The translations under genes and the position numbers were made by a program. The notes under the pieces were generated by a model. The model had not been told where the DNA came from. It made no database searches and worked only from the letters and a program-made list of their open reading frames with translations. From a virus, in the IMG/VR virus record IMGVR_UViG_3300028578_000005, positions 1 to 45,041 of that record: a stretch of DNA of 45,041 bases, one strand, 5' to 3'. Of this stretch, positions 10,791-26,085 are shown in pieces. Positions within the stretch are counted from its first letter, which is position 1. Each line of letters opens with the position of its first letter.

Positions 10791-10824
10791 TAGCCGGGGC
10801 CTTGCTCGCCCCGTCGGGCATCGT
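10791..10824 (+). promoter_or_regulatory. Late-promoter-like module 1: TAGCCGGGGCCT-N16-CATCGT, 6 nt before GTG 10831
   Basis: Exact 12-mer plus CAnnnT at +28. There is no Shine-Dalgarno before the portal start. Confidence 0.6.
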
Positions 10825-10830
10825 CCCGGC

Positions 10831-12186
10831 GTGGCCCTCAAGGACGCACCCACCGGCGAGATCGGCGCCCCCGGCATCGCCTCCAGCATCGACGGCTGGA
10901 TCGACTCCTGGGACGACAACCCCCTCCTCCGGTGGCCCCACAACGTCCACATCTACGACCGCATGCGCACCGACGCCCACCTCGAGTCCGGGCTCGACGC
11001 CATCCACCTCCCGATCCTCCAGACCCCCTGGGACCTCACCCCCGACAGCGTCGCCGAATGCCGTCCCGAGGTCGTCAAGCTCGTCCGCGAGGACATCGGC
11101 ATCGCCGAGAAGGGCACCCGGCTACGCCGGCCACGCAACGCCGTCGTGTTCGACGACTTCCTCCGCCACGCGCTCCTCCAAGACGTGTTCGGGCACATGG
11201 TCTTCGAGCAGTGCGCCGAGGTCATCGACGGGAAGGCCCGCCTCCGGAAGCTCGCACCCCGCATGCCCAAGACCATCCAGGGCTGGGACCTCGACCGGCA
11301 CGGCGGCCTCCAGGCCATCAAGCAGCTCATCCCGCTCCCCAACGGCCAGTGGGACGAGAAGCGCATCGCCATCAACCGGCTTGTCGTGTTTACCCGCCGC
11401 AAGGAAGGGTCCGACCCCACCGGCCGCTCCATCCTCCGGTCCGCGTGGGTGCACTGGATCGACAAGGTCGGGCTCCTCAAGGTCGACACGATGTCCGGCG
11501 AACGCAACGGCATGGGCGTCCCCGTCGTGTACTACGACCCCAACCGCATGACGAAGAAGGAGGCGCTCGACATCGCGTCGAACGTGAGGGCAGGCGAGTT
11601 CGCCGCCGCAGCGTTCGAGGAAGGCGCCGGCCGGCTCGAGCTCCTCGGCGTCGATGGCCAGGTGAAGGACCTCATGGCGTCGATCCGGTACCACGACCAG
11701 GAGATGTCGCGGCGCATGCTGGCGATGTTCCTCGACCTCGGCCACGACAACGGCGCACGGTCCCTCGGCGAGACGTTCGTCGACTTCTTCGTCATGGCCG
11801 TCCAGGCCGAAGCGAAGCACATCGCCGGGGTCATCAACGAGCACGTGATCCGCGACCTCGTCGAGTGGAACTACGGGCCCGACGAGCCCTGGCCGCTCCT
11901 CGAGTGCGACGAGATCACCGCGGACGCCGACGTGACCGCGGCGTCGCTCAAGATGCTTGCCGAATCGGGCTACATCATCCCGGATCCGGCCAGCGAGGCG
12001 GTGCTCCGCCGCCGGTACCGGCTTCCCGAGTCGCCGATCGGCGCGCCCCCTGGGATCGCTCCGGTCAACCGTGTCGACCAGCCCGACGAGACGCCCGACG
12101 ACGGCACGATCGAGGCGCTCGAGCAGCAGGTGGCGCGGCTCAAGGCCGGGCCCCGGGCTGTGCCGACTCGCGTAGCATCAACCTGA
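10831..12186 (+). CDS. Portal protein (Mu gp29 / DUF935-like)
   Basis: ORF track. 451 aa, immediately after the large terminase and before the MuF-like gene. Confidence 0.8.
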   Translation: MALKDAPTGEIGAPGIASSIDGWIDSWDDNPLLRWPHNVHIYDRMRTDAHLESGLDAIHLPILQTPWDLTPDSVAECRPEVVKLVREDIGIAEKGTRLRRPRNAVVFDDFLRHALLQDVFGHMVFEQCAEVIDGKARLRKLAPRMPKTIQGWDLDRHGGLQAIKQLIPLPNGQWDEKRIAINRLVVFTRRKEGSDPTGRSILRSAWVHWIDKVGLLKVDTMSGERNGMGVPVVYYDPNRMTKKEALDIASNVRAGEFAAAAFEEGAGRLELLGVDGQVKDLMASIRYHDQEMSRRMLAMFLDLGHDNGARSLGETFVDFFVMAVQAEAKHIAGVINEHVIRDLVEWNYGPDEPWPLLECDEITADADVTAASLKMLAESGYIIPDPASEAVLRRRYRLPESPIGAPPGIAPVNRVDQPDETPDDGTIEALEQQVARLKAGPRAVPTRVAST

Positions 12187-12200
12187 CCTAGGAGGCCGTC

Positions 12201-12386
12201 GTGCTGGAGTTCGTGATCTGCCAGGACCTCCGAGGCGAATGGCGGTGGCGGCTCGTCGCACCGAACGGCCGGGTCATGGCCGACTCCGCCGAGGGCTACC
12301 TGGATCCGACGAACGTCCGCGACGCGCTGGACCGGATCCTGTCGGGCATCGGCGACCGCGAGTACTCCATCGTCGACGCGGCGTGA
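12201..12386 (+). CDS. DUF1508 (YegP-like) small protein
   Basis: ORF track. AGGAGG lies 6 nt upstream. GEWRWRLVAPNGRVMADSAEGY matches the DUF1508 signature as I recall it. Confidence 0.65.
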   Translation: MLEFVICQDLRGEWRWRLVAPNGRVMADSAEGYLDPTNVRDALDRILSGIGDREYSIVDAA

Positions 12387-13345
12387 ACCACCAGCACCTC
12401 GCAGACCAGCTGAGCGCGGCCGAGCTCGAACAGCGGATCCACGTGATGCGCTCCGACCTCGCCGCGGGCACCGTCCCGGCGGGGATGCGCCGCCCCCTCT
12501 TCGACCACGAGGTGCAGGCCCGGACGAACTTCGCGGGGATCGAAGATGACGTGCTCGCCGAGGCCGGGATCATCGGCGCCCGACTCGGGGAGTCGAGGAT
12601 CAGGTTCATCGAGCTCGTCATGGCCGAGCTCCGCCGTGTCGTGTTGATCGCGTCGCCGGTCGCGCCGATCCAGCGGATCGCCCAGAGGATCTTCGACGCC
12701 GACGGGCCCGACGGGCTGCGCGCTATCTCTGGCGCGGCTGAGCTGCTCGAGAAGGACGCGCAGTGGCACCGCGGGCGGCTCACGGTGGCGGGGGAGAAGG
12801 GGTTCCGACAGATCCTCCGCGAGGCCGCCGCGCAGGCGTTCCCCGTGCCGGAGGGCCTGGCGCTCAAGCTCGATGCGGACCAGGCCGACCATCTCGACCT
12901 CGCGGCGCGTCGGTTGGCGCAGGCCCCGCACGTGGACGTGATCCGTGCGCTGCGTGAGCAGGTGTACGTCGAACCGCGCGGGTTCGTCCGGCCCGAGCAG
13001 GTCATCAGCTCACTCGACGTCCACGCCCGCGGCCTGTCACCGGGGCCGTTGCAGCAGTACGCGTCGGACGCGTCCGCGCAGGCCACCGGCATCGGCAGGA
13101 TCGCCACTGCGACGGTGATGCCCGACGCCCGGGCCTACTACGCGTCCGAGCTCCTCGACCGTGCGACGTGCGGGCCGTGCTCGCTCATGGACGGCCACCA
13201 GTTCCGCGACCTGCTCGACATGCGGGCCGACTACCCCTTCGGCCAGTACCGCAAGTGCGAAGGCGGCTCGCGCTGCCGGGGCACCCCCGTGATCGTCTGG
13301 GCAGCCGAGGCCGAGCCCACGTTGCGCACCGCCGGCGACCGATAG
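12383..13345 (+). CDS. Head morphogenesis protein (MuF / SPP1 gp7-like)
   Basis: GTG 12383 (GTGA overlap) within ORF 12239..13345. Position after the portal. C-terminal Cys cluster CGPC...C....C. Confidence 0.65.
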   Translation: MNHQHLADQLSAAELEQRIHVMRSDLAAGTVPAGMRRPLFDHEVQARTNFAGIEDDVLAEAGIIGARLGESRIRFIELVMAELRRVVLIASPVAPIQRIAQRIFDADGPDGLRAISGAAELLEKDAQWHRGRLTVAGEKGFRQILREAAAQAFPVPEGLALKLDADQADHLDLAARRLAQAPHVDVIRALREQVYVEPRGFVRPEQVISSLDVHARGLSPGPLQQYASDASAQATGIGRIATATVMPDARAYYASELLDRATCGPCSLMDGHQFRDLLDMRADYPFGQYRKCEGGSRCRGTPVIVWAAEAEPTLRTAGDR

Positions 13346-13376
13346 CCGGGGCCTGACACGGGCCCGCTCGCACGCT
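13343..13376 (+). promoter_or_regulatory. Late-promoter-like module 2: TAGCCGGGGCCT-N16-CACGCT, 7 nt before ATG 13384
   Basis: The TAG of the box is the stop codon of the MuF-like gene. There is no Shine-Dalgarno before ATG 13384. Confidence 0.6.
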
Positions 13377-13383
13377 GTGCGGC

Positions 13384-14721
13384 ATGCCCGAAGCGACCGG
13401 CACCGTCACGATCCCGGACGTCACGATCCTCCGGCCAGGCACCTGGGCCGCGTCCACCGGACCCGTCACCGTCACCGCCGACCACATCGCCGACGCACTC
13501 GCCGCGTTCGCCGACCCCCAGATCGACACTGCCCCCCTCAAGCTCGGCCACACCGGCAAGCTCTCCGACCTCGGCGACTCCGAACCCGGCCTCGGCTGGC
13601 TCGACAACCTGCGCCTCGCCGACGACGGCGCAGTCGTCGCCGACCTGGTCGACATCCCCGCGTCACTTGAGCCGGCGATCAAGGCCGGGTTCAAGCGCCG
13701 TTCCGCCGAGCTCGCCTGGGGCGTCACCACCACCGGCGGCAAGAAGTACTCGATGGTCATCGACGGCCTCGCTCTCCTCGGTGTGCAGCGCCCCGCGGTA
13801 AAGGGCCTCGAGGACCTCGGGAAGCTCTACACCCCCGCCACCCTCGCGTCCGACGGCCTCGAAGCTGAGTCGCACTCGCGGCTCGCGTTCTACGACATCG
13901 CCCCCGACGAACCGACCCGGCCCGAGAAGATCGCCAACGCGGCGGAGTGGGCGAAGGAGTCCGTCGCGCGCCTCGCCGCGCTCGTCGGCGTGACCGGTCT
14001 CCAGGCCGCGTTCGACGCCATCGACGCGATGACTCGGACGGATAGCCGGGGCCTCCTCGCCGCCGGCCCGCAGAGTGACCCGCATGCACCGCAGCCTCCC
14101 GGAGGGAAGCCGATGAGCACCACCCCGACCCTGAGCGCTGAGCAGCTGGCCGAGGCCCGCACCAAGCTCGGCCTCGCCGACGACGCCACCGACGAGCAGG
14201 TCGTGGCCAAGCTCTCCGAGCTCGACGCCCTGGTGACAGCCATGCGCCCTCCGTCCGCCGGCACGGACGCCGGCGATGGCGGTACGGGTGACGGCACCAC
14301 CACGGGCGAGCCCGCCACCGCCGGCGCGGCCCTGTCCGCGGACCAGCTGCAGGCCGCCGGGCTCGTGACCCTGCCCGCCGCCGCCCTCGCACAGATCCAG
14401 GCCGACGCCGCCGCCGGCAAGCAGGCCGCCACCCACCTCGCCGAGAAGCGCCGCGACGACCTCCTCGACGAGGCCGAGCGCGCCGGCAAGTTCGGCGCCG
14501 GCGACGCCGCCAAGGCCACCCGCACGAACCTCGCGGCGCTCCTCGACACCAACTACGCGGGCACCAAGGCCCTCATCGACGGGATGCCCGCCCTCGTCCC
14601 CGTCGGCGAGATCGGCAACGACTCGCCCGGCCCCGCCCACTCCGAGCTCGCCGCCGGCCAGGCCGACGCCTGGGCCAAGTGGGAGGACGAGGTCTTCGGT
14701 CTCACGGAGGAGAACGCCTGA
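13384..14721 (+). CDS. Capsid maturation protease fused to scaffolding domain (Mu gpI-like arrangement)
   Basis: ORF track. N-terminal globular part with LKLGHTG...GLGWL. C-terminal Ala/Glu/Asp-rich coiled-coil-like half. Lies before the capsid gene. Confidence 0.65.
   Translation: MPEATGTVTIPDVTILRPGTWAASTGPVTVTADHIADALAAFADPQIDTAPLKLGHTGKLSDLGDSEPGLGWLDNLRLADDGAVVADLVDIPASLEPAIKAGFKRRSAELAWGVTTTGGKKYSMVIDGLALLGVQRPAVKGLEDLGKLYTPATLASDGLEAESHSRLAFYDIAPDEPTRPEKIANAAEWAKESVARLAALVGVTGLQAAFDAIDAMTRTDSRGLLAAGPQSDPHAPQPPGGKPMSTTPTLSAEQLAEARTKLGLADDATDEQVVAKLSELDALVTAMRPPSAGTDAGDGGTGDGTTTGEPATAGAALSADQLQAAGLVTLPAAALAQIQADAAAGKQAATHLAEKRRDDLLDEAERAGKFGAGDAAKATRTNLAALLDTNYAGTKALIDGMPALVPVGEIGNDSPGPAHSELAAGQADAWAKWEDEVFGLTEENA
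14043..14076 (+). promoter_or_regulatory. Late-promoter-like module 3 (internal to protease gene): TAGCCGGGGCCT-N16-CAGAGT
   Basis: Same spacing as the other modules. It is followed 7 nt later by ATG 14084 of a 10-codon mini-ORF that ends on the nested scaffold start. Confidence 0.5.
14113..14721 (+). CDS. Nested scaffolding protein (in-frame internal start)
   Basis: GGAGGG at 14101-14106 then ATG 14113, in the protease frame. Encodes 202 aa of low-complexity helical sequence. Confidence 0.5.
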   Translation: MSTTPTLSAEQLAEARTKLGLADDATDEQVVAKLSELDALVTAMRPPSAGTDAGDGGTGDGTTTGEPATAGAALSADQLQAAGLVTLPAAALAQIQADAAAGKQAATHLAEKRRDDLLDEAERAGKFGAGDAAKATRTNLAALLDTNYAGTKALIDGMPALVPVGEIGNDSPGPAHSELAAGQADAWAKWEDEVFGLTEENA

Positions 14722-15101
14722 TGGCCAACGACTGCTTCCCGCTCTTCGACGCCGGCGCCAAGCCGACGTGCCACTGCGAAGCGGCCGTCACGGGCAAGCG
14801 CTTCGTCGAGGTCTCCGGCCCGATGGTCAACGGCCTCATCCAGATCTCCCACGCCACCGCGGCGGGCACGGTCTTCGGCGTCGCCTTCCGCGACACCGCG
14901 ATCGCCGGGACCTGCGGGGTCTACACCGACGGCATCGTCCCGGTCACCGCCGGCGGCGCGTTCTCCGCCGGGCAGCTCCTCGAGGTCGGCGCCGACGGCA
15001 AGGCCGTCGTGCTCGCCGCCGGCATCCCGGTCGCCAAGGCCATGAGCGACGGCGTCAACAACGCCGACGCGTTCGTCCAGCTACTGCGCACTCCGGCCTG
15101 A
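14721..15101 (+). CDS. DUF2190-like head decoration / capsid cement protein candidate
   Basis: ATG 14721 (TGATG overlap) within ORF 14679..15101. 126 aa and Gly/Ala/Val-rich. Lies between the scaffold and the major capsid gene. Confidence 0.6.
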   Translation: MANDCFPLFDAGAKPTCHCEAAVTGKRFVEVSGPMVNGLIQISHATAAGTVFGVAFRDTAIAGTCGVYTDGIVPVTAGGAFSAGQLLEVGADGKAVVLAAGIPVAKAMSDGVNNADAFVQLLRTPA

Positions 15102-15115
15102 GCCAAGGAGAACCG

Positions 15116-16021
15116 ATGCCCGCCAACCCGCTTGCCTACGCCCCGCTCGTCCCCACGGTCGACGCGAACGGCATCATCGGCAACCTCGAGTTCTGGCTCA
15201 ACCAGCCCGCGCGCGTCCAGCGCGTCGCTCGCAGCCTCGTCAACCAGCGGTTCGTCGCCGACGTCATCTTCGGCACCGGTCCCCAGGCCAGCGGCGGCGC
15301 GGTCATGTACGACCAGGTCACCGAGAACGACCTGTACCTCACCAGGGACGTGCAGGAGATCCAGGCCGGTGCGGACTACCCCGTCCTCACCGACGAGGCG
15401 CCCACCCCGAAGATGGCGGCGGTCAAGAAGTGGGGCGGCCGGGTCTTCGTCACCGACGAGGACCGCGACCGCAACGCCTACAACGTCGTCACCCGGGAGC
15501 TCACCAAGCTCGGCAACACGGTCATCCGCAAGGTCGACGGCGTCGCCATCGCCTCGCTCCTCGCCGCCCCGATCCTGAGCGACGTCGGCACCGACTGGTC
15601 CGATCCCGTCGCCGGCGACCCGATCGGCGACATCGTCAACGGCCGCCAGCTCTCCAACGCGCTCGACATGGGCTACGAGCTCGACACCGTCCTCATCAAC
15701 AGCCAGGAGGAGGCGTCACTCCTCGGGATCAAGACCTTCCGCGAGTCCCTCTCGGACCCGTCGAAGGACGCGATCGTGCGAGGCGCCAACCTCGGCAAGG
15801 TCATGCGGATGGACTTCATCGTCTCGAACCGGATCACCCCGGGCGAGGCGATCATCCTCGAGCGCGGCACCGTCGGCGGCATCTCCAACGAGGTGCCGTA
15901 CCAGACCAAGACCTACCGCGAGGAGGGGGCCGACAAGACGTGGGTCCAGGGCTCCCGCCGGGTCGTGCCCTACGTGACCGACCCGAAGGCCGTCGTCCGC
16001 CTCACCGGCCTCGCCGGCTGA
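15116..16021 (+). CDS. Major capsid protein (Mu gpT-like size and position)
   Basis: AAGGAG lies 5 nt upstream of ATG 15116, within ORF 14768..16021. 301 aa with strong codon bias. Confidence 0.8.
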   Translation: MPANPLAYAPLVPTVDANGIIGNLEFWLNQPARVQRVARSLVNQRFVADVIFGTGPQASGGAVMYDQVTENDLYLTRDVQEIQAGADYPVLTDEAPTPKMAAVKKWGGRVFVTDEDRDRNAYNVVTRELTKLGNTVIRKVDGVAIASLLAAPILSDVGTDWSDPVAGDPIGDIVNGRQLSNALDMGYELDTVLINSQEEASLLGIKTFRESLSDPSKDAIVRGANLGKVMRMDFIVSNRITPGEAIILERGTVGGISNEVPYQTKTYREEGADKTWVQGSRRVVPYVTDPKAVVRLTGLAG

Positions 16022-16043
16022 TCCCGAAGGGACCACCTCCGCC

Positions 16044-16424
16044 ATGACCAAGCGCATCGTCATCACCGACGGGTTCACCTGGCACACCCCGACCGGCATC
16101 AACGGCCTGCCCCGGAAGCACCGGGCCCTCAAGGGCGACGAGATCGACGTCGACCTCGCCACCCTCAACGCCGCGCAGCTCGCCGCGCTCGCCGACCCAT
16201 CCGACGCGGCCACGATCGAGGCGTCGCAGTCCGACGGGTGGGTCCAGAAGACCGACGACGAGATCGCCGGCCTGTCGGTCGAGGAGATCGTCGCCTACCT
16301 CAACTCGGCGCCCGAGGACCTGCACGACAGCGAGACCGAGCGCCTGGTCGTCCTCGAGGAGCAGGGCAAGCAGCGCAAGAGCGTCCTCGCGCTCCTCGGG
16401 CCCGTCTCCGACGACGAGGACTAG
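16044..16424 (+). CDS. Hypothetical head-associated protein
   Basis: ORF track. High GC3. Acidic C-terminus. Confidence 0.65.
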   Translation: MTKRIVITDGFTWHTPTGINGLPRKHRALKGDEIDVDLATLNAAQLAALADPSDAATIEASQSDGWVQKTDDEIAGLSVEEIVAYLNSAPEDLHDSETERLVVLEEQGKQRKSVLALLGPVSDDED

Positions 16425-16436
16425 GCGCAGGCCGCC

Positions 16437-16910
16437 GTGGCGGTCGACCTCTACGGCTGCACGCTCGACGACGTCGACGCCCTCCTCGTCTGGGACGTCA
16501 AGCGCGCGGACGAGCCGGGGCCACCTGACGTCGAGACGTGGATCGTCGCCGGTGCGGCGGAACTCGCCGGGCTGATTGGCGAGATCGAGCCTTCGCCGCC
16601 GGTGCCCGACCCGCCGGCAGAGCCCGACCCGGACCCTCCCTGCGGTGGCGACGGATGGCGTTCCCGGGCCAGGCTCGTCGTCGCGCTGTACGCGGCGGCG
16701 ATGGCCGAGGACGCGCACTTCCCGGAGCGGTCGAAGCGTGCGGGGTCGGACTACGGGCAGCGGCTGTGGGAGCGTCACAAGGAGCAGCGCGGCGCTCTCG
16801 TGTCGGCGCTGGAGGCGTGCCGTGACGGGCTGAACCCGGGGGCGGCGCACGGCGGAAGTGGGCACTCGTTCCCGTACCCGCCGCTGTTCACCCGCGACAT
16901 GGGCGTGTAG
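16437..16910 (+). CDS. Head-tail connector / adaptor candidate
   Basis: ORF track; assigned by position only. Confidence 0.5.
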   Translation: MAVDLYGCTLDDVDALLVWDVKRADEPGPPDVETWIVAGAAELAGLIGEIEPSPPVPDPPAEPDPDPPCGGDGWRSRARLVVALYAAAMAEDAHFPERSKRAGSDYGQRLWERHKEQRGALVSALEACRDGLNPGAAHGGSGHSFPYPPLFTRDMGV

Positions 16911-17372
16911 ATGCCGGCCCGCCTGCGGTTCTCGTTCTACGGCGACGCGCAGATCGACCGGACCCTCGACGGCTTCGAGCTCCGTGCGGACGACGCCTCG
17001 CCCGCGTGGGAGGTTCTCGCGGACCGGTTCCTCGACGCTGAGCGTCGCCAGTTCGCCTCCGAAGGCGGATACGGCTCCGGCGGGTGGGCACCGCTGTCCG
17101 CACCGTACGCGGCATGGAAGGCCACCGCTGCGCCGGGCGCGCCGATCCTCGTGTTCAGCGGTGCCCTCAGGGACAAGCTGACGGAGGGCCCTGAGATCCG
17201 GGTCATCACCCCGTCACGGATGGTTGTCGGGGCCTCAGATGAGGTCGGCGGCTACCACCAGAGCGGCACCGACAAGATGCCCCGCCGTCGCCCGGTCGAG
17301 TTCCCGGACGATGAGCGCACCACGTGGGGGCGGGTCGTCCACCGCTTCATCGTCACCGGTGAGGCCATCTGA
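16911..17372 (+). CDS. Virion morphogenesis (Mu gpG-like) head-tail joining protein
   Basis: ORF track. FASEGGYGSGGWAPLS...ILVFSGALRDKL...GGYHQSG resembles the phage virion morphogenesis family. Confidence 0.65.
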   Translation: MPARLRFSFYGDAQIDRTLDGFELRADDASPAWEVLADRFLDAERRQFASEGGYGSGGWAPLSAPYAAWKATAAPGAPILVFSGALRDKLTEGPEIRVITPSRMVVGASDEVGGYHQSGTDKMPRRRPVEFPDDERTTWGRVVHRFIVTGEAI

Positions 17373-17942
17373 GTGCGCGGCTCCACCACCGTCCGCCGCG
17401 AGATCATCGCCCACCTCCAGGAGGCCGCTCACCTGCCGTCGCGCATCGCCGCCCTCAGGGACGCCGGGGCGAACGTTCGCCAGATAGCGGAGGGCGAGTG
17501 GCACCCAGCCTGGAAGCCTGAGGAGAACTGCACCAACTGGCCGACCTTGTGCATCACCACGAGGACCTCGACCAACCAGGGCCGCGAGGACTTCGTCAAC
17601 GGCGACCCGGAGCACCGGTGGCTGCGCACGTTCCGGATCTTCATCTGGGAGCGCGGGGACGGCTACGAGGAGTGCGCTGACCGAACCGAGAACATCGCTG
17701 ACGCTATCGCCGAGGAGTTCCTGGCCCGACCTGGGATCGCCGACGGGGCCGACTCGATGTACGTCCTCGACGCTCCGATGTCGGTGGCGCGATCCACCTA
17801 CGTGGACCGCGATGGAGCCTCGATAGCCGGGGCCTACATCGAGTTCGTCGTCAGCATGACCGAGACCGCCACCATCCCGCCCCTGTGGGACGGCGGAGAG
17901 CTCGACCTGGACCTGATCGTCGGACCGAAGGACCCTGCATGA
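17373..17942 (+). CDS. Neck / tail-terminator candidate
   Basis: ORF track; assigned by position before the sheath operon. Confidence 0.5.
   Translation: MRGSTTVRREIIAHLQEAAHLPSRIAALRDAGANVRQIAEGEWHPAWKPEENCTNWPTLCITTRTSTNQGREDFVNGDPEHRWLRTFRIFIWERGDGYEECADRTENIADAIAEEFLARPGIADGADSMYVLDAPMSVARSTYVDRDGASIAGAYIEFVVSMTETATIPPLWDGGELDLDLIVGPKDPA
17824..17857 (+). promoter_or_regulatory. Late-promoter-like module 4 (internal to 17373..17942): TAGCCGGGGCCT-N16-CAGCAT
   Basis: Same 12-mer and spacing. The predicted start near 17864 gives a leader of about 75 nt before ATG 17939. Confidence 0.5.
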
Positions 17943-18169
17943 CGAAGCCGGCGTACAACACCAGCGGCGGACCTGTCGTGATCGACGACGACGGCCACAC
18001 GCTCGCCGCGGGGGACTGGGGCGACGTCGACCCCGACGCCCCGCGCGTGGTCGAGCTGGTCGCCGCGGGGCACCTGGTCATCAACGACGAGTCCCCGGCC
18101 GCTGCGCCGGCCACCGACACGGACGAGAAGCCGATCGGCGAGCCGAAGGGCTCCCGGAGGAGCAGCTGA
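17939..18169 (+). CDS. Hypothetical protein (76 aa)
   Basis: ATG 17939 (ATGA overlap) within ORF 17885..18169. Confidence 0.6.
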   Translation: MTKPAYNTSGGPVVIDDDGHTLAAGDWGDVDPDAPRVVELVAAGHLVINDESPAAAPATDTDEKPIGEPKGSRRSS

Positions 18170-19797
18170 TGGCACCCGCCGCCCCGGTCCCTCACGTGTG
18201 CCGCCCCCACCGAGCGAAGTCGCGCCTCGGCCGAGGCCTCGAGCGCATCACCGCACCGTTCCTGCTCGTCGTCGGCCTGCTTGGCGCCCTCTTCCACCTC
18301 CTCGCCACACGGCTGGCGATGGCCGGCCCGGGCGTGTTCGTCGAGACCGCACCCACCGCCACCCCCTCCGACAACCAGGCCGCCCCCGGGGCAGCGTTCT
18401 TCCTCGTCGGGCTCTGCGACCGAGGGACCACCACCGGTGTCGTCACGGTCCGCTCGTACACCGAGTTCCTGAACGTGTGCGGCCCCCACGTCCCCTACGG
18501 GTCCCTCCACGACCAGGTCCGGCTCTACTTCGCGATGGGCGGCAACCTCGCCCACATCGCCCGGGTCGTCGGCGGCGCAGCGACCGTCGGCACCCTCACC
18601 CTGCAAGACCGCAACGGCACCCCCGCGAACACCGTCCGCATCGACGCCGTCTCGGCCGGCGCATGGTCGGCCAACATCGCCATCGAGATCACCAACGGCG
18701 AGCTCGCCGACACCTACACGATCAAGGTGTACGTCGACGGCGCCACCGTCCCCAACGAGGTGTACCCCAACCTCGCCACCCCGGCCGCCGGTGTCACCGC
18801 GCTCCTGCAGTCGAGCTACGTGCGCGGCACCGACCTCGCCTCCGGGTCGACTGCGCCGGCCAACAACCCGGCGGTCCTCGTCAAGACCGCCCTGTCGGCC
18901 GGGTCCGACGACCGCGCCGCGGTGAACGCCGCCGCGCTGACCGCCGCGCTGGCCCGGTTCACGACCGAGTTCGGTGACGGCATCGTCGCCATCCCCGGCC
19001 ACGACTCCTCGACGGTCGGCGCCGGCCTGATCGCCCACGCCCGCACGTTCAACCGGCTCACAGCGCTGGCCACCACCCGCACCGCGTCGGTCGCGCACGC
19101 CAAGTCCGCCGCGACCGCGTTCGCCGCGTCGAACACCGGCGCCGAGCACGCCATCCTGCTGTACCCGTGGGTGAAGGTCGACGACGGGGCCGGCGGCCAG
19201 CGGTCCATCTCACCGGAGGCCTACCTGGCCGGCGCCCGGGCCCGGGCCCACATCCAGGTCGGCCCATGGAAGGCGGCCGCCGGCGAGATCTCCGTCGCCG
19301 CGCAGGTCCTCGACGTCGAGACCACCCTCACCGACACCGAAGGCGCCGACCTCAACGACGCCCGCGTCGCCGCCATCCGGAAGATCTCCGGGCGCGTCCA
19401 GCTCTACGGCTACCGCACCCTGTCCCTCGACCAGGTTCGCTACCTGTTCCTCACCACCCGCGACGTCCTCAACACCGTCGCCCACCGCGGGAAGCGGTCC
19501 CTGCAGCGCCTCGTGTTCGGGGTCATCGACTCCCGCGGCCAGTACCAGGCCGAGGTCGAAGGCGAGATCATCGCCATCCTCGACCCGATGCTCAACGCCG
19601 GAGGGCTCTACGAGCTCACCAACGACGACGGCGAGGTCATCGACGCCGCCTACGCCGTCGACGCCGGGCCCGGGGTCAACCCGCCCGACCAGATCGCCCA
19701 GGGCATCTTCGCCTGCAACGCCGCGCTCCGCGTCGCCGGTGTCGCCGAGCGGATCCTGCTCCGCATCACCAGCGTCGGCTTCGACGAGACGCTCTAG
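18169..19797 (+). CDS. Tail sheath protein (possible alternative start ATG 18319)
   Basis: ORF track. GGAGGAG precedes ATG 18169. The sheath-type N-terminal motif GPGVFVET begins only at residue 52. Conserved-looking C-terminal domain. A tube gene follows. Confidence 0.8.
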   Translation: MAPAAPVPHVCRPHRAKSRLGRGLERITAPFLLVVGLLGALFHLLATRLAMAGPGVFVETAPTATPSDNQAAPGAAFFLVGLCDRGTTTGVVTVRSYTEFLNVCGPHVPYGSLHDQVRLYFAMGGNLAHIARVVGGAATVGTLTLQDRNGTPANTVRIDAVSAGAWSANIAIEITNGELADTYTIKVYVDGATVPNEVYPNLATPAAGVTALLQSSYVRGTDLASGSTAPANNPAVLVKTALSAGSDDRAAVNAAALTAALARFTTEFGDGIVAIPGHDSSTVGAGLIAHARTFNRLTALATTRTASVAHAKSAATAFAASNTGAEHAILLYPWVKVDDGAGGQRSISPEAYLAGARARAHIQVGPWKAAAGEISVAAQVLDVETTLTDTEGADLNDARVAAIRKISGRVQLYGYRTLSLDQVRYLFLTTRDVLNTVAHRGKRSLQRLVFGVIDSRGQYQAEVEGEIIAILDPMLNAGGLYELTNDDGEVIDAAYAVDAGPGVNPPDQIAQGIFACNAALRVAGVAERILLRITSVGFDETL

Positions 19798-19810
19798 GAG
19801 GACCTGAACG

Positions 19811-20230
19811 ATGGCAGGGGATCTCGTCACCGAAGGCCAGTGGCTCGTCACCGTCGCCGGCATCGCCGGGACGTTCTCCACCAAGACCGGTGGGGCCGTC
19901 TCGGTCGAGCACACCAAGGACTACGACGGCGGCGCGCTCAACCCCGACGCCGCGCAGGGCAAGCCTCAGTTCGAGGACCTGACGGTCGGCCGCGGGTTCA
20001 AGAACCCCCGCGACGTGCAGCTCCGCCAGTCCCTCAACGCCGTCCTCGCCGCGGGCCGCCGGTTCCAGACCACGATCACCTGCGTCCCGCTCAACGAGCA
20101 GCAGGTCGCCGCAGGACCCGCCGAGATCTACACGGGCCTCCTCCAGCGGGTCACCCCCGCCGAGTCGAACGCGGCGTCCGCCCAGCCGTCCCGGATCGCC
20201 CTCGTCTTCACGGTGCTCTCGGCCCGATGA
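19811..20230 (+). CDS. Tail tube protein
   Basis: ORF track. AGGAGG upstream. 139 aa, directly after the sheath. Confidence 0.75.
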   Translation: MAGDLVTEGQWLVTVAGIAGTFSTKTGGAVSVEHTKDYDGGALNPDAAQGKPQFEDLTVGRGFKNPRDVQLRQSLNAVLAAGRRFQTTITCVPLNEQQVAAGPAEIYTGLLQRVTPAESNAASAQPSRIALVFTVLSAR

Positions 20231-20763
20231 CCGCCCCGTTCGTCCACCCCGGCGTCGGCGGCGCCCCTGCACCCGAGTCGCCCGAGGCGGTCGCCGCCCA
20301 GATGGCCGCCCCCGGTGTGCAGCACGCATGGGAGGCCGAGCTCGCCGCCGAGCTCCACCGCGACACCACCCGGCCCAACGTGTTCCTCCCCGTCCCGGAC
20401 CGGCCGGGCTGGGAGATCGAGTACTCCGTCATGTTCGACAAGGACCAGGTCAAGGCCCTCTTCGCTGGCGTCTCCGCCGAGGACGACCGGTTCGACGTGA
20501 TGCTCCTCACCTTGGCGTCGCAGTGCCGCGGGTTCCGCCGCAACGGCGAGCCGGTCACCATCCGGGCCGAGCGCATCACGTTCACGAGCACGTGGCTGGC
20601 CGAGCAGTACCACCCCACGGGCATGCCCTCCGAGCTGTACGACGTCCGCGTCACCGTCCGCGGGTTCATCGGCAACGACCTGGTCGTCGCGTCGATGTTC
20701 GACGACCTCTCGACGGTCGCTGGGAAGGGCCGCCTGGACCCTACGGCCGCGCCCTCCGCCTAG
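20227..20763 (+). CDS. Tail assembly chaperone (G-type product)
   Basis: ATG 20227 (ATGA overlap) within ORF 19840..20763. Lies between the tube and the tape measure. Confidence 0.7.
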   Translation: MTAPFVHPGVGGAPAPESPEAVAAQMAAPGVQHAWEAELAAELHRDTTRPNVFLPVPDRPGWEIEYSVMFDKDQVKALFAGVSAEDDRFDVMLLTLASQCRGFRRNGEPVTIRAERITFTSTWLAEQYHPTGMPSELYDVRVTVRGFIGNDLVVASMFDDLSTVAGKGRLDPTAAPSA

Positions 20764-20936
20764 CGGAGATCCTCGAGGGCCGGCCGGAGACCGAGGTGAT
20801 CGCCGGGGTGGCCGGCGCCTTCAAGATGGACCCCGCTGAGGTGCTCAAGGGCAGCGACAAGGACATCGCTGTGCGCCTCGCTGCCGAGCGTGTCTGGGCC
20901 CGCATGCTCACCGAGGCGGTGAAGGCCCGTGCCTGA
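20227..20936 (+). CDS. Tail assembly chaperone, -1 frameshift-extended (GT-type) product
   Basis: The -1 frame is open and codon-like from about 20740 to TGA 20934-20936 (LAEILEGRPETEVIAGVAGAFKMDPAEVLKG...) and has no start codon of its own. GGGAAG at 20722-20727 is a possible slip site. Confidence 0.5.
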
Positions 20937-23019
20937 CGAGGACAACGAACTCGTCATCCGTGCGGAGCTCCGCAACGACGTCACCCCCGGGGCCCGGTCG
21001 GTCCGCCGTGACATCCGCGGGATCTCCGACGAGGCCGAACGACTCGAACGCTCAGGCCTCCGCGGCGCACGCGGGCTCGACCACCTCGACCGGACCGGTG
21101 CGCGGACCCGTCGCGGGATGGGTGACCTGCACCGCAGCCTCCTGTCCGTCTCGGGCGCCGCCGGCGACCAGCTGTGGCGCGCGAGCACCCGCGGTGCGCA
21201 GGCCCTCGGCATCCTGACGACCGCGACCGCCGGGTTCGGGCTCAAGGCCGCATCGAACCTGCAGCAGGGCCAGATCCAGCTCGAGACGCTCCTCGGCTCC
21301 GCGCAGGAGGCCACGCGGGTCTTCACGTTCCTCAAGCAGCTCGACCCCAAGGTCCCGTTCGATGTGGGCCAGCTGCAGCAGATGACCGTCCAGCTCGCGA
21401 ACGCCAACATCACCGGGAACGAGCTCTTCCGGACCCTCCAGGGCGTGTCGGACGTCGCGGCCACCACGGCGGACCCGAACCTCGCCGCCACCCGCGTGGC
21501 CCGGGCCGTCGCACAGATGAAGTCCGCCGGGGTGATCCTCGCCGAGGAGATCAACCAGCTCGTCGACGCCGGCGTCGCTGTCGGTCCCGCGCTCGAGAAG
21601 GCCTACGGCATCACCCTCGCCCAGTTCCGCAAGCAGCAGTCCCAGGGCGGCGCCCAGCTCGCTCCGGAGCCGCTCTTCGCCGCGCTGTTCGGCATGCGCA
21701 TCGGCTCGGCCGAGCGTGTCGCCACCGAGACCCTGGCAGGCCTGTGGTCCGGTGTCCGCTCGAGGGTCACCCTCAAGCTCGCCGACGAGTCCTCGCCGCT
21801 CGTGCAGATGCTCATGTCCGAGCTCCCCCAGATCGAGGGCGCGGTCGGGCTTCTCCTCGACCAGGCCGGCCCCGAGCTGTTCGGGTTCGTCGGCGACATC
21901 ATCGGCCTGCTCACCGACGCGCTCCCCGCGGCGGCGCCGGTCCTCACGGCGATCTTCGGTGGGCTCGGCTCGCTCCTCTCCGCCGCGGGCCCGGGCCTGC
22001 GCGCGCTCGAGCCGCTCGCTGGTGAGGTCGGTGACGGCATCGCGGACGTGTTCCGCGAGCTCGCCCCCCTGATGCCCGACCTGGTCGCCACGTTCGGGGC
22101 GTGGCTCGGGATCCTCCCCGAGTTCCTCGAGGTCGGCGGGGACGTCGCCCGGGTCCTGCTCTTCATCGTGGGCGGGGTCACCGACCTCATGGGGATCATG
22201 CCCGGCGGCGAACGCGTCGCCGCAACGCTCCTGTGGACCCTCCTGGGCTACCGGGCTCTCGCCAGCATGGCCACCGGGCTCCGGTCGTTCGGGATCGCTC
22301 TCGGGTTCATCGGCAACCAGGCACAGACCGCTGGCGTCAAGGCCCAGGTGGCCTACGGCCGGTTCCTGCGCCTCGGTGCGGGCATCGCCGGCGCGGTCGG
22401 TGTCGCGTCCGGCCTCGGTGGCGCGGCCCAGGGCACGAACAGCGGCCTGGACACCCTCGGGTTCATCGGCTCCGGTGCGCTCGTCGGCGGCTCCATCGCC
22501 GGGCCCTGGGGCGCTGTCGCCGGCGCCGGCGTCGCCGCCGGGGTCACCGGTCTCGGCATGCTCTTCGGCGACCCCGTCGTCCCCGGTCACACCATGGCCG
22601 GACACCTCGCCGCCGGCGGCGGGGCACCCGGGCTGCAGATCACGTCGGGCATGCGCGACTGGGGGCTGCGCTCCGGTGCGTCCGGGCACCTCAACGGCTC
22701 CGCGGTCGACGTCGTCGGCCCGGGCCTGACCGGCTACGTGCAGCGCGTCCGTGACCGGGGCGGCTGGGCAACGATCGAGGGCGCGGGCACCGGCGGCATG
22801 CACGCCCACGCCCTGCCCGCCGGCGACCCCGCCGTGCCGTCGTGGGCAACCAACCGTGGTGCCACGCGGAGCGGCACCGGTCGCGCTGCGGTGTTCAACA
22901 ACTACGGGACGATCGTCGGCGTCACGGACTTCAAGCGGCACATGCGCGACGTGATCCGCGAGACCGAGCTCGAGGACGTCGCCCGGTCTCGCGACCCGAT
23001 CCGCGGGCGGAGGACCTGA
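20929..23019 (+). CDS. Tape measure protein
   Basis: ORF track. 696 aa with Gly/Ala-rich hydrophobic central segments. Lies after the chaperone pair. Confidence 0.8.
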   Translation: MPDEDNELVIRAELRNDVTPGARSVRRDIRGISDEAERLERSGLRGARGLDHLDRTGARTRRGMGDLHRSLLSVSGAAGDQLWRASTRGAQALGILTTATAGFGLKAASNLQQGQIQLETLLGSAQEATRVFTFLKQLDPKVPFDVGQLQQMTVQLANANITGNELFRTLQGVSDVAATTADPNLAATRVARAVAQMKSAGVILAEEINQLVDAGVAVGPALEKAYGITLAQFRKQQSQGGAQLAPEPLFAALFGMRIGSAERVATETLAGLWSGVRSRVTLKLADESSPLVQMLMSELPQIEGAVGLLLDQAGPELFGFVGDIIGLLTDALPAAAPVLTAIFGGLGSLLSAAGPGLRALEPLAGEVGDGIADVFRELAPLMPDLVATFGAWLGILPEFLEVGGDVARVLLFIVGGVTDLMGIMPGGERVAATLLWTLLGYRALASMATGLRSFGIALGFIGNQAQTAGVKAQVAYGRFLRLGAGIAGAVGVASGLGGAAQGTNSGLDTLGFIGSGALVGGSIAGPWGAVAGAGVAAGVTGLGMLFGDPVVPGHTMAGHLAAGGGAPGLQITSGMRDWGLRSGASGHLNGSAVDVVGPGLTGYVQRVRDRGGWATIEGAGTGGMHAHALPAGDPAVPSWATNRGATRSGTGRAAVFNNYGTIVGVTDFKRHMRDVIRETELEDVARSRDPIRGRRT

Positions 23020-23501
23020 TGCCCTCGCTCTCGTTCCTCTTCCCCGGCTCGTCGTCCTCGCCGCCGGCGCACCGCAAGGCCACGATCACCGACGACATCG
23101 GCGCGCTGACCTACACCGTCCCGGTCCTCGCGGATTCGGGGATCGACGAAGCCGCGTCGCGGTGGAACCTGACCGACCGCCCGGGCCTGCACCCGCTCAC
23201 GCAGTGGGCCGGGCCCGGGGCGGTCGTCGCGTCGCTCACGATCCGGATCGGCAACGACCTGGTCACCTCGATCGAGCGGGACATCGCGATCCTGCGCGGG
23301 ATGGCCCGGTCGACTCGGCCGGTGGTCGTGGCGCTCGGCCAGTTCTCCCGCTGGTCTTCCACCGGGTTCTGGGTGATCACCACGGTGAAGGTCGACGACC
23401 AGCTCCTCATCCAGGGCAGCAACGACGCGTGCCAGGCCGTCGTCACCCTCGGGCTGACGTCGGCGATGACGCCGAAGCTCGTCCAGACGACGGGGAAGTA
23501 G
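23019..23501 (+). CDS. Tail / baseplate-associated hypothetical protein
   Basis: ATG 23019 (TGATG overlap) within ORF 22842..23501; assigned by position. Confidence 0.55.
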   Translation: MPSLSFLFPGSSSSPPAHRKATITDDIGALTYTVPVLADSGIDEAASRWNLTDRPGLHPLTQWAGPGAVVASLTIRIGNDLVTSIERDIAILRGMARSTRPVVVALGQFSRWSSTGFWVITTVKVDDQLLIQGSNDACQAVVTLGLTSAMTPKLVQTTGK

Positions 23502-23505
23502 CCGG

Positions 23506-25446
23506 GTGCCGGTCATCACGGTCGACGCGTGCGCCGAGTACGCCTTCGCCGCCGGGTTCCGCGGTGAGGGGCTCATCACGGCGGTCGCAGTGGCGGGGGC
23601 CGAGTCGCAGCCGCCGTACAACACCACGTCGCACAACCCCGACGCCTCGACGGGCGACGACTCCTACGGACTGTGGCAGATCAACATGCTCGGCAGCCTC
23701 GGTCCGGCGCGCCGCAAGCAGTTCGGCCTCTCTCGGAACGACCAGCTCTTCGACCCGGCGACCAACGCCCGGGCCGCCTACTCCATCTCCTCGGGCGGCT
23801 CGAACTGGTCACCGTGGACCACCTACAAGAACGGCAAGCACCGCCCCTTCCTCGACCGGGCCCGCGCCGCAGCGGACGCCGTGTCACGCCGCGGTGGCGC
23901 AGCCATCGCCGCCGGGGCCCAGCCAGTCTCCGCCTCCCAGCCCGCCGTGATCGCCGGCGAAGTCCTCCCGCACGGCGGATCGATCTCCGACGTCTCCGGC
24001 GTTTCATCCCTGTTCCCCGGGGTGCAGCTCACCGGGGTCTCGACAGCGGACGCCGACAAGATCCGGCGCATGGGCATCAGCGGTCAGGTGTCCCTCTCGA
24101 TCGCCGAGACCGCCCAGATCGAGCTCACCTACGCCGACCCCCGCGGGTCGATCGAGACCTGGCAGCGGTTCGTGTCGCTCACCACCGCCCGGCTCGGTGA
24201 CCTCGACATGCAGGTCAACTCCGTCGGGTTCGGCGCCCAGTCCGGTCTCGAGGTCCTGGCCGTCACGCTCCGGCCCCGCACGGTCGAGAAGATGCGCCAG
24301 CCCGACCTCAACAAGTCGCGCACCTGGGCGGACCTGTCACCCACCGAGGTGCTGAACGAGCGCGCGCGTGCGGCGTCGATGCGGTTCTACGGCAAGGGCA
24401 CCGCACGGCGCTCCCAGATCGTGCAGCTCGGCCGAGACGACGCCACCGGCCAGCAGGCAGAGACCGACTGGGACCTCGGGCAGCGCCTCGCCCGAGAAGA
24501 GGGCTTCTGGTTCTTCGAGTCCGCCGGCGCCCTCTACTTCGCGCCGCCCACCTGGCTCCTCGGGAAGGGCACCGTCGTCCAGGCCCGCTACCGCTCGCCC
24601 CAGCACCAGTGGAACGTCCTCGACGTCCCCGACGCCAAGCTCACCGTCGACGAGGTCATCAACACCCGCGCCTTCTCCCGCGTCATCCGGCTCAAGCTGC
24701 CCCGCTGGCGCGGCGAGCAGGTCCGCCCAGGGATGACCTGCCAGTTCGACGGGCTCCCGATGTTCTCCACGAAGCTGTTCGAGAAGGGCCCCGCGCTCTA
24801 CATCGTCACCGACGTGTCCTGGCCCCTCGACGGCGGCATCGCACCCGTCGACGTCGAGATCATGGAGGCGATCGACCCGGTCCCGCAGCCACCCCCGCCG
24901 GACGTGACGGTCACCGACGCCACCGGCCCCGCCGGCGCCGCACCCTCCGCCTCCGCGCCCGCGGGCGGGAACGTGTCCAACCAGGGCAAGGGCTCCTACG
25001 GCTGGCAGTACGACGCCCCCGGCGGCACCGCCAGCGGCCCCCAACCCGGAGCGATCGTGCTCCGCGACCACCTCAAGTCCCGGTACAACTTCATCGGGAC
25101 GACCGGGATCTACGCCGACCGCAACGTCAACGGCACCTCATCGAAGTCGGCGCACGCCGAAGGCCGCGCCGTCGACCTCCACGTCCCCCTCTCGTCGGTG
25201 CAGGGCTCCCAGCTCGCCGCCTACTGCGTCTCCTACGCCTCGAGGCTCGGGGTGCAGTACATCATCTGGAACAAGCGCTCCTGGAAGGCCACCGACAACC
25301 CGCGGGACTGGAAGACCTACCGGCCCCCCAACGGGAAGACCGACGCCACCAGCGAGCACCGCGACCACGTGCACGTCGAGCTGTGCTGGGAAGCGGCCCG
25401 CTACCTCAACCACGACGCCATCAAGGGCATCGGAGTCGGCCCCTGA
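23506..25446 (+). CDS. Baseplate hub (late control D / Mu P-like) with N-terminal lytic transglycosylase and C-terminal LAS-type zinc peptidase domains
   Basis: ORF track. N-terminus AESQ...DDSYGLWQIN is an SLT-like signature. The centre resembles the gpD family. C-terminus has SAHAEGRAVD ... HRDHVHVE (H-x6-D and H-x-H). Confidence 0.7.
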   Translation: MPVITVDACAEYAFAAGFRGEGLITAVAVAGAESQPPYNTTSHNPDASTGDDSYGLWQINMLGSLGPARRKQFGLSRNDQLFDPATNARAAYSISSGGSNWSPWTTYKNGKHRPFLDRARAAADAVSRRGGAAIAAGAQPVSASQPAVIAGEVLPHGGSISDVSGVSSLFPGVQLTGVSTADADKIRRMGISGQVSLSIAETAQIELTYADPRGSIETWQRFVSLTTARLGDLDMQVNSVGFGAQSGLEVLAVTLRPRTVEKMRQPDLNKSRTWADLSPTEVLNERARAASMRFYGKGTARRSQIVQLGRDDATGQQAETDWDLGQRLAREEGFWFFESAGALYFAPPTWLLGKGTVVQARYRSPQHQWNVLDVPDAKLTVDEVINTRAFSRVIRLKLPRWRGEQVRPGMTCQFDGLPMFSTKLFEKGPALYIVTDVSWPLDGGIAPVDVEIMEAIDPVPQPPPPDVTVTDATGPAGAAPSASAPAGGNVSNQGKGSYGWQYDAPGGTASGPQPGAIVLRDHLKSRYNFIGTTGIYADRNVNGTSSKSAHAEGRAVDLHVPLSSVQGSQLAAYCVSYASRLGVQYIIWNKRSWKATDNPRDWKTYRPPNGKTDATSEHRDHVHVELCWEAARYLNHDAIKGIGVGP

Positions 25447-25724
25447 TGCCCCCCGTCGTCCCCGCCGGCGTCTACCGAGCCACCATCCGGGCCATCGACG
25501 GCCCAGTCGCCAAGGTGCAGGTCCACAACCTCCTCGGCGCCAACATCCTCCCAGCGCGCCTCACCGTCTCCGCGGGGATCGTCGACGCCGCCGTGGGCGC
25601 GGTGGAGGCGCCGGCGGACGAGGGCACGGTCGCTCTGCGGCCACTGCAGGTCGACGACGAGGTGATCGTGGGGTTCCTCGAGGGCCGGATCGAGAACCTC
25701 GTGATCCTCGGCCGCCTGGCCTGA
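25446..25724 (+). CDS. Baseplate spike / gpV-like small OB-fold protein candidate
   Basis: ATG 25446 (TGATG overlap) within ORF 24609..25724. 92 aa, lying between the hub and the W-like gene. Confidence 0.5.
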   Translation: MPPVVPAGVYRATIRAIDGPVAKVQVHNLLGANILPARLTVSAGIVDAAVGAVEAPADEGTVALRPLQVDDEVIVGFLEGRIENLVILGRLA

Positions 25725-25758
25725 TAGCCGGGGCCTCACGGCCCTCCACGGCCATCGT
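25725..25758 (+). promoter_or_regulatory. Late-promoter-like module 5: TAGCCGGGGCCT-N16-CATCGT, 6 nt before GTG 25765
   Basis: The box starts immediately after stop TGA 25722-25724. There is no Shine-Dalgarno before GTG 25765. The downstream 34 nt resemble module 1 (shared CATCGT..N5..GTGGC). Confidence 0.6.
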
Positions 25759-25764
25759 CAGGCC

Positions 25765-26085
25765 GTGGCGCAGCGTGTTCTCTCCTACCCGTTCCGCATC
25801 GACCTCTCCGGAGCGGCGGCGACGGTCGAGCAGGACACCGAGCCGCACCTCCGCGAGCAGATCGCCATCCTCGCCCTCACCAGGGCGGGGGAGCGGGCGC
25901 TGCGGCCAGGGTTCGGGCTCACCGACCCGGTCTTCGACGGGTTCCAGCCCTCCGAGCTCGCCGCGAAGCTCGAGCTGTTCGGCCCCCCCGTCGAGCTCGG
26001 GAACATCGTCGTCACCCCGCAGTCGGTCGACGTGCAGCACGTCGAGATCAACTTCGAGCCCGCCACGGTGGTGGCCGCCGCGTGA
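25765..26085 (+). CDS. Baseplate wedge protein (GPW / gp25-like)
   Basis: ORF track. YPFRIDLSG...REQIAILALTRAGERALRPGFG fits the gp25 family pattern. Confidence 0.75.
   Translation: MAQRVLSYPFRIDLSGAAATVEQDTEPHLREQIAILALTRAGERALRPGFGLTDPVFDGFQPSELAAKLELFGPPVELGNIVVTPQSVDVQHVEINFEPATVVAAA

Follow-up and report, generated by a model that had tools for sequence, protein, structure and literature searches.

Invariant box and −10-like hexamer modules as probable late promoters of virion genes in an uncultured temperate phage

Introduction

How are the virion genes of a high-GC phage switched on when the long block that holds them offers no ordinary promoter? The question is raised by a temperate phage genome known from metagenome assemblies (JGI; Logan SRR8270007), IMG/VR record IMGVR_UViG_3300028578_000005, of which we analyzed positions 1 to 45,041 (the whole stretch of 45,041 nucleotides, hereafter the window; ~71% G+C). 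Across the late block at 8.5-28 kb, a consensus scan found no sigma-70 promoter with a TTGACA-like −35, and no intrinsic terminator was found there, so that late expression needs other promoters. A sequence-only reading of the window had pointed instead to five identical copies of a 12-mer, TAGCCGGGGCCT (the box), each followed at a fixed distance by a CAnnnT hexamer, and had proposed that these modules form a dedicated late-promoter class feeding leaderless virion genes. Here we examine the anatomy of the five modules, their conservation in related phages, the codons that they occupy where they lie inside genes, and the factors that could read them. The modules are likely to be phage-specific late promoters in which the box replaces the −35 element, although not every gene that they serve is predicted to be leaderless.

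Results

The five copies of the box start at 10791, 13343, 14043, 17824 and 25725, all on the + strand and all within the virion-gene block, as had been reported, and there are none on the − strand. Neither the 12-mer nor the full TAGCCGGGGCCT-N16-CANNNT pattern occurred in any of 100 dinucleotide-preserving shuffles. In copy order the hexamers are CATCGT, CACGCT, CAGAGT, CAGCAT and CATCGT; each begins exactly 28 nt after the first T of its box, leaving the 16-nt spacer that the sequence-only reading described, and each has the A at position 2 and the T at position 6 of a −10-type element. Because the window has such a high G+C content, a fixed-phase C-A-n-n-n-T in five copies out of five is very unlikely to arise by chance. 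The box extends to GATAGCCGGGGCCT in four of the five copies, and this GC-rich element occupies the position of a −35. A mismatch-tolerant search of the window, which the earlier reading had suggested as a check, gave no convincing additional site, even with up to three mismatches plus the hexamer. Scans of the window for tRNAs and Rfam families gave no match, and the box sites coincide with no intrinsic terminator.

The strongest evidence comes from comparison with other phages. Closer relatives, with portal proteins 58-64% identical to that of the window phage, were found in a large protein collection (L052/L058, L053, L055, L056/L060 and L059). All 24 boxes compared at orthologous junctions are identical (24/24), in at least six phage genomes and with at least five phages related to the window phage. 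The conserved junctions lie before the portal gene, before the protease gene, within the protease/scaffold open reading frame (ORF), at the 3′ end of a gene for a 189-aa protein, and at the boundary between the gpV-like and gpW-like genes. Over these 24 sites the hexamer keeps C1 in 22, A2 in 23 and T6 in 23, and the bases before the box are G in 21 and A in 19. The spacer is 16 nt long in 23 of the 24 and 17 nt in the remaining one, and its sequence carries no information. The proteins encoded around the sites have diverged to 40-75% identity while the box has stayed invariant, which indicates that selection acts on the DNA itself. The sequence-only reading had made its proposal depend on whether the box is conserved at equivalent positions in relatives, and at these portal identities it proved invariant.

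At somewhat lower portal identity the box begins to change. The portal site of L185 (portal 55%) reads TAGCCGGGGCAT-N16-CACGCT-N6-GTG, with one mismatch in the box and the same geometry, and that of L182 (portal 53%) reads TAGCCCTCCGCC-N16-CACCAT-N6-GTG. Other relatives have ordinary Shine-Dalgarno (SD)-led starts at the equivalent junctions. Among cultured phages and in IMG/VR there are only distant relatives, with portal identity of at most 42%; a megablast of window positions 9-27 kb against cultured phages gave no match, and a scan of a genome collection with the portal protein returned two distant prophages only. The exact pattern was found in IMG/VR as single hits per contig only, and in metagenome contigs, among the matches listed, again as single hits only, all of them apparently due to chance. 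A near-copy of the box stands just before the tape measure gene (TCGCCGGGGCCT at 14408 in L053, TGGCCGGCGCCT at 20809 in the window). In neither phage is a properly spaced CAnnnT associated with it, and it probably reflects coding conservation rather than a sixth promoter.

At three of the five sites the module leads directly to a start codon. Putative late promoter 1 (10791..10833, + strand) consists of the box at 10791-10802, the 16-nt spacer, CATCGT at 10819-10824 and 6 nt before GTG 10831, which opens the Mu gp29-like portal gene (10831-12186, + strand). In putative late promoter 2 (13343..13386, + strand), the box at 13343-13354 and CACGCT at 13371-13376 are followed after 7 nt by ATG 13384 of the Mu I-like protease/scaffold gene (13384-14721, + strand). 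Putative late promoter 5 (25725..25767, + strand) has its box at 25725-25736 and CATCGT at 25753-25758, 6 nt before GTG 25765; a gpV-like gene (25446-25724) lies upstream, and downstream are the gpW-like baseplate gene (25765-26085) and then baseplate J (26082-27209). The portal, protease/scaffold and gpW-like genes are all predicted to be leaderless. The three start codons are those named in the sequence-only reading, which was also right that two boxes touch upstream stop codons: the TAG of copy 2 is the stop of gene 12383-13345, and copy 5 abuts TGA 25722-25724.

The same arrangement recurs in the relatives. Orthologues of site 1 in L052, L053, L055 and L056 all have the form box-N16-CAnnnT-N6/7-ATG. 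Site 2 is kept in four relatives, with L053 providing the 17-nt spacer, and site 5 is conserved in L058 (9653), L059 (3081) and L060/L061 (6714/1669), with GTG or ATG 6-7 nt beyond the hexamer. Sites 1, 2 and 5 have an ATG or GTG at this distance from the hexamer in every phage, with no SD, and the N-termini of the portal, protease and gpW proteins are conserved from the predicted start codon. Pairing with the anti-SD is among the weakest in the block at these starts (−2.5 kcal/mol for GTG 10831, −1.7 for ATG 13384 and −2.5 for GTG 25765), none of which has a purine-rich SD; GGAGG-type sites are present before 12201, 15116 (AGGAG), 18169 and 19811. Both observations agree with what had been read from the window.

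Taking the start codon as +1, the hexamer would span approximately −12 to −7 and the box approximately −40 to −29, the usual location of a −35 element. In Mycobacterium tuberculosis, 7-12 bp separate the −10 element from the transcription start downstream of it, most starts are purines, and C is preferred at −1 (PMC3898074). The geometry at sites 1, 2 and 5 is that of an actinobacterial leaderless promoter, and the prediction of three leaderless starts is well supported. The proposal of a box plus a weak −10 serving three leaderless genes thus gains from the comparison, in which the box is invariant at orthologous junctions while the spacer drifts freely. The distance from the end of the box to the start codon is 28-29 nt at these sites, ~58 nt at site 3 and ~100 nt at site 4.

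Site 3 (putative late promoter 14043..14115, + strand; box 14043-14054, CAGAGT 14071-14076) lies inside the protease/scaffold ORF. Downstream of it in the window are GGAGGG at 14101-14106 and an in-frame ATG at 14113, which opens a nested scaffold ORF (14113-14721). In five phages out of five the box and the hexamer are kept, as are a GGAGG and, 33-39 nt downstream of the hexamer, an ATG in frame. The Pfam Mu-like_Pro match covers aa 243-417, that is, from 14110, coinciding with the nested ATG 14113. Given the conserved GGAGG and in-frame ATG at the boundary of the protease and scaffold domains, site 3 appears to be the promoter of a nested scaffold gene, with transcription predicted to start near 14083-14084. 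A start near 14084 had been expected as part of a leaderless class. The promoter stands, but no leaderless gene begins there; the gene served would be the SD-led nested scaffold. In Mu, the gpZ scaffold is nested in gene I, an arrangement that site 3 mirrors.

We considered the GTG that follows site 3 in L052/L056 as a leaderless scaffold start, and dropped it in view of the GGAGG and ATG conserved further downstream in all five phages. In the window a mini-ORF of 10 codons, from ATG 14084 to TGA 14116, starts 7 nt past the hexamer of site 3, and its stop codon shares an ATGA with the scaffold ATG 14113. The equivalent position holds an 11-codon out-of-frame ORF in L055 and a GTG in frame with the scaffold in L052/L056; L053 has no start codon there, only an out-of-frame ATG overlapping the hexamer. 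The mini-ORF may be a leaderless coupling ORF, or it may be fortuitous.

Site 4 (putative late promoter 17824..17857, + strand; CAGCAT 17852-17857) also lies within a coding sequence, at the 3′ end of the gene for the 189-aa protein (17373-17942), 103-118 nt from its stop codon in every phage. Transcription is predicted to start near 17864, which would give a leader of ~75 nt to ATG 17939 of a 76-aa gene (17939-18169), followed by the sheath gene (18169-19797). Here too the proposed promoter is retained, and the transcript for 17939-18169 and the sheath gene would be leadered.

At site 3 the box is read in frame as the codons GAT AGC CGG GGC CTC (DSRGL), and across phages as GAT AGC CGG GGC CTn; at site 4 it is read as ATA GCC GGG GCC T. 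In 12 large genes, ATA accounts for only 1 of 288 Ile codons, yet it is fixed at site 4 in five of five phages, and GAT, 15 of 485 Asp codons in the same genes, is likewise fixed at site 3 in five of five. The T-ending codon that provides T6 of the hexamer is fixed at both sites, while neighboring codons vary. Codon usage at sites 3 and 4 shows nucleotide-level constraint.

More distant relatives have a second box in the same layout as the window class, (GACAC-N7-8-)GTCCCAC-N20-[C/A]AnnnT-N6/7-ATG. It is found in cultured Arthrobacter cluster AR phages and in a Nakamurella prophage, at the portal, protease/scaffold, pre-sheath and gpW junctions. In phage KBurrousTX (MH744419.1; L186/L187), GTCCCAC boxes mark late sites on the + strand at 2798, 6648, 8410, 14668, 24208 and 31555; one of them lies inside the scaffold/protease gene, and the annotated starts 2837, 24247 and 31594 (portal, gene 27 and baseplate wedge) fall 6 nt after the hexamer. 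The Nakamurella prophage (L050) has boxes at 9830, 12671 and 17338, before the portal and protease genes and before the gene just ahead of the sheath gene, and further boxes were found in L001 (1391, 5257 and 6984) and L002 (3822 and 5598). GACAC is present 7-8 nt upstream of GTCCCAC at many sites of this class (KBurrousTX, L050). Within 60 nt upstream of the window-class sites, GACAC/GTGTC occurs at 6 of 24, against a background of 12.5%, which is no enrichment. The words "promoter" and "motif" are absent from the paper describing the cluster AR genomes (PMC5513430).

A DnaN-like sliding clamp is encoded in both GTCCCAC-class phages, at 6056-7360 in L050 and as gene 100 (67009-68115) in KBurrousTX, and no such gene was found in the window phage among the ORFs scanned. 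Mu and T4 couple late transcription to the clamp (PMC12867686).

Three early proteins had been put forward as possible readers of the box. Only two early proteins are conserved in the box-bearing relatives. One is a free WhiB-like protein of 115 aa (8318..8665, + strand; Pfam Whib, E=2e-24), whose gene is found upstream of the terminase gene in L052, L053, L055 and L056. It is present in every box-bearing phage with upstream coverage and absent from box-less relatives, and a hidden Markov model built from the five WhiBs hit box-bearing phages only. A tblastn search of cultured phages with the WhiB returned only relatives below 51% identity, without related late modules. The other conserved protein, of 210 aa (6337..6969, + strand), combines a Zn-ribbon (HGGxSTG-like; NF041373, E=2.5e-5, below the cutoff) with a helical part; homologues of it also occur in the box-less L007 and L008. 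Sequence searches of PDB and Pfam with this protein gave no hits, and its structure model (helical; predicted local distance difference test score, pLDDT, 69) had no meaningful match in PDB or BFVD. It might be the box reader or, equally well, a small terminase subunit. The candidacy of the WhiB is favored by its conservation and by its co-occurrence with the box, which is however confounded by descent; that of the Zn-ribbon protein is favored by conservation and weakened by its presence in box-less relatives. The third candidate, a winged helix-turn-helix (HTH) protein (6074-6340), is unlikely to be the factor because it is not conserved in the box-bearing relatives. The statement that no sigma gene can be recognized agrees with our searches, in which no sigma factor or activator was found with Pfam, PHROGs or NCBIfam among the ORFs scanned.

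The gene content around the modules gives the setting. The window phage is most likely a temperate Mu-like-head myovirus of a high-GC actinobacterium, with one long co-directional virion operon, and its genes are mostly on the + strand. The late region opens with the large terminase gene (9226-10737, + strand). Besides the genes already described, it encodes a decoration protein, the major capsid protein, a sheath-sized gene, the tape measure, gpU-, gpD-, gpV-, gpW- and gpJ-like baseplate proteins, and tail and lysis functions. Early genes include a WhiB-helicase fusion, DnaB, and small genes, among them the free WhiB. The fusion (446-3454, + strand) is a protein of 1002 aa with a WhiB domain at aa 50-114, a ResIII/DEAD helicase core and four helicase-associated (HA) domains, and relatives match it in its WhiB part only. 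Lysogeny genes occupy 35702-38409: on the − strand a tyrosine integrase (35702-36808), an ImmA/IrrE-like peptidase (37092-37517) and an HTH repressor (37548-37994), and on the + strand, divergent from the repressor, a Cro-like HTH gene (38194-38409). There is no copy of the box in this module.

Two repeat arrays were also observed. Tandem repeats of 45 bp, coding for a 15-aa unit (RAYYEANKDEIAEKQ), are found at both ends of the window (1-300 and 44774-45041), which suggests that the contig is circularly permuted and that a single gene containing the repeats crosses the junction. At 3873-4160, within an ORF for a 239-aa protein without family match (3482-4201), there are at least ~17 copies of a 12-bp tandem repeat, GGGNCGCCGCCN.

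Discussion

The anatomy of the modules suggests how they might work. A holoenzyme of the sigma-70 family would melt the CAnnnT hexamer, which keeps the bases flipped by sigma region 2, A−11 and T−7, while the invariant (GA)TAGCCGGGGCCT box at approximately −40 to −29 would stand in for the −35 element. The box would be read by a dedicated factor, most likely phage-encoded, perhaps together with the phage WhiB on sigma-A region 4. Transcription would begin 6-7 nt downstream of the hexamer, which for the portal, protease and gpW genes would be on the A or G of the start codon and would yield leaderless mRNAs; site 3 would give a short SD-containing mRNA for the scaffold nested in frame in the protease gene, and site 4 a leadered mRNA for the sheath and tube genes.

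As to the factor, other WhiB-like proteins of phages are known to bind region 4 of sigma-A and have been compared with T4 AsiA (PMC13013590). We infer that the WhiB at 8318-8665 is a candidate partner of region 4 of the host sigma-A, and it would be the best lead for the factor. The same proteins are reported to lack sequence-specific DNA binding, so that WhiB alone cannot explain an invariant box of 12-14 bp, and a two-component scheme of sigma appropriation, as with MotA and AsiA, becomes attractive as a hypothesis. WhiB would act on sigma-A region 4 in the manner of AsiA and end −35 recognition; either by itself or helped by a partner, for example the Zn-ribbon protein, it would redirect the host polymerase to TAGCCGGGGCCT, turning on the leaderless virion mRNAs. 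We put this scheme forward tentatively, as a possibility that is less likely than not.

Several points weigh against the promoter reading or against its phage-encoded factor. The phage is uncultured and known solely from metagenome assemblies, and the support for promoters is sequence comparison. The hexamer begins with C rather than with the T of TANNNT, and a recognition mode other than that of sigma-A may be at work. Our database searches recognized no activator or sigma gene among the ORFs scanned, and WhiB-like proteins have been reported without sequence-specific DNA binding (PMC13013590). KBurrousTX has the same architecture with neither the WhiB nor the Zn-ribbon protein. Finally, all box-bearing phages belong to a single clade, and common descent may by itself account for box and WhiB occurring together.

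In the explanation that lies closest to ours, the promoter architecture is the same and the box is read by a host factor, either an alternative sigma or a host activator, the phages having adopted an existing class of host promoters. A slowly evolving host factor would easily explain why the box is invariant while the phage proteins have diverged to ~45-65% identity, and it would fit with the failure to recognize a phage sigma or activator. The GTCCCAC class, moreover, is common to an Arthrobacter phage and a Nakamurella prophage, and often has the host-WhiA motif GACAC 7-8 nt upstream (PMC10243135). On the other hand, the same junctions are served by two different boxes in related phages, and the box alters stepwise with phage divergence (L185, L182). 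In addition, hits to the exact pattern were confined to one per contig, both in the viral collection and, among the matches listed, in metagenome contigs, and the window-class boxes show no enrichment of GACAC upstream. We consider a host reader unlikely, although it is the most serious of the alternatives.

The box could instead act in RNA, either as a processing site that makes 5′ ends at the starts or as a linear recognition element for a factor acting in antitermination or translation. The copies are without exception on the transcribed strand, the coding sequence around two of them is transcribed anyway, and cleavage could also yield the 5′ end at the start codon that leaderless translation needs. 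However, signatures of a structured element were not detected: the mean fold z-score of the 24 sites is −0.27, against +0.23 ± 1.13 for control windows, the pairing differs from copy to copy, and there is no Rfam match. An RNA element would also leave unexplained both the fixed 16-nt spacing to a hexamer that keeps its A and T and the 6-7 nt from hexamer to start, and sites 3 and 4 keep the hexamer though no conserved start codon follows at that distance. This makes a role in RNA quite improbable. Even harder to credit, and rejected here, is the alternative raised in the sequence-only reading, that the boxes are stoperator-like sites at which a bound prophage repressor would stop polymerase elongating through the late genes. 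In its favor, the box is asymmetric and always faces the same way with respect to transcription, stop codons are overlapped by some of the copies, a feature also of Cluster A mycobacteriophages (PMC9283540), and the phage is a temperate one that encodes an integrase and an ImmA/HTH pair. But there are only five sites, all in the virion block (10.8-25.8 kb), and no copy with up to two mismatches near the divergent repressor/cro region (37.5-38.4 kb) or the early genes. A repressor site would have no need for a strict register with a −10-like hexamer and start codons, and the same layout is seen in KBurrousTX, whose record has no annotated integrase or immunity repressor.

The phage-specific late promoters that we propose would belong to a known kind, the activator- or sigma-dependent late-promoter classes of phages, and seem comparable to the C-dependent promoters of Mu and the MotA promoters of T4. 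T4 middle promoters, too, have in place of the −35 a conserved asymmetric box whose distance from a sigma-70-type −10 is fixed (PMC6755090). T4 also places a small phage protein, AsiA, on sigma region 4, a part that WhiB, conserved in the box-bearing phages, may play here. The MotA box, however, is 9 bp centered at −30 and differs in sequence from the 12-14 bp box at approximately −40 to −29; the T4 promoters require a near-consensus −10 rather than a weak CAnnnT; and they serve middle genes, whereas here the genes are late virion genes and many of the transcripts are predicted to be leaderless. No homologues of MotA or AsiA were found with Pfam, PHROGs or NCBIfam among the ORFs scanned.

The window phage shares with Mu the portal, the Mu I-like protease with nested scaffold and the Mu/P2-like baseplate. 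The Mu promoters PI and PP match in position the promoters before the protease gene and inside the baseplate region. The MuC-dependent promoters Plys, PI, PP and Pmom are likewise few late promoters that have a −10 without a −35 and a dedicated factor; their site is a dyad, TTAT-N5-6-ATAA, overlapping the −35 region, in contrast to the asymmetric and GC-rich TAGCCGGGGCCT (PMC12867686). The window phage differs further in its predicted internal scaffold promoter and in some apparently leaderless starts, and no Mor/C-family activator was hit by Pfam among the early and late ORFs scanned. A parallel in the presumed hosts may be the Streptomyces sepX promoter (WhiA/WhiB), where a sigma-A holoenzyme with a WhiB-like protein on region 4 makes a leaderless transcript (PMC10243135). 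At sepX the −35 is kept and WhiB contacts DNA non-specifically, whereas the window class has a 12-14 bp box at −35 and no enrichment of GACAC.

Some mycobacteriophage repeats resemble the boxes in outward form. The GGAG within the SAS of Cluster K phages (GGGATAGGAGCCC) looks SD-like. SAS (PMC3203893) and the stoperators of Cluster A (PMC9283540) are, like the boxes, short asymmetric repeats in one orientation near gene boundaries. Stoperators, however, are numerous, spread genome-wide and match the operator of the early promoter, none of which is true of the window boxes, and SAS stand directly upstream of starts (PMC3203893), while the box ends 28-29 nt before predicted leaderless starts without SD. 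What appears to be new here is the sequence of the box, the host group, and the use of such promoters for leaderless virion genes and for a nested scaffold gene.

Little of the late-gene control of actinobacteriophages has been mapped, and these modules provide a comparatively validated class, for which a signature of 12-14 bp, a defined −10 and predicted starts can be given. Two of its proposed uses are unusual: transcription of a nested scaffold gene from within another gene, and the expression of major virion genes without leaders. For annotation, the motif fixes the true starts of genes in this phage group, such as that of the gpW homologue in L060, and reveals a nested scaffold gene that gene callers miss. 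The architecture can be tested in culture, since the GTCCCAC class is present in the Arthrobacter phages KBurrousTX and ArV1. The set of boxes also offers concrete DNA targets for the action of phage WhiB at the host polymerase, and if the tentative scheme for WhiB is true, one of the commonest regulators of actinobacteriophages would gain a defined job and a DNA target.

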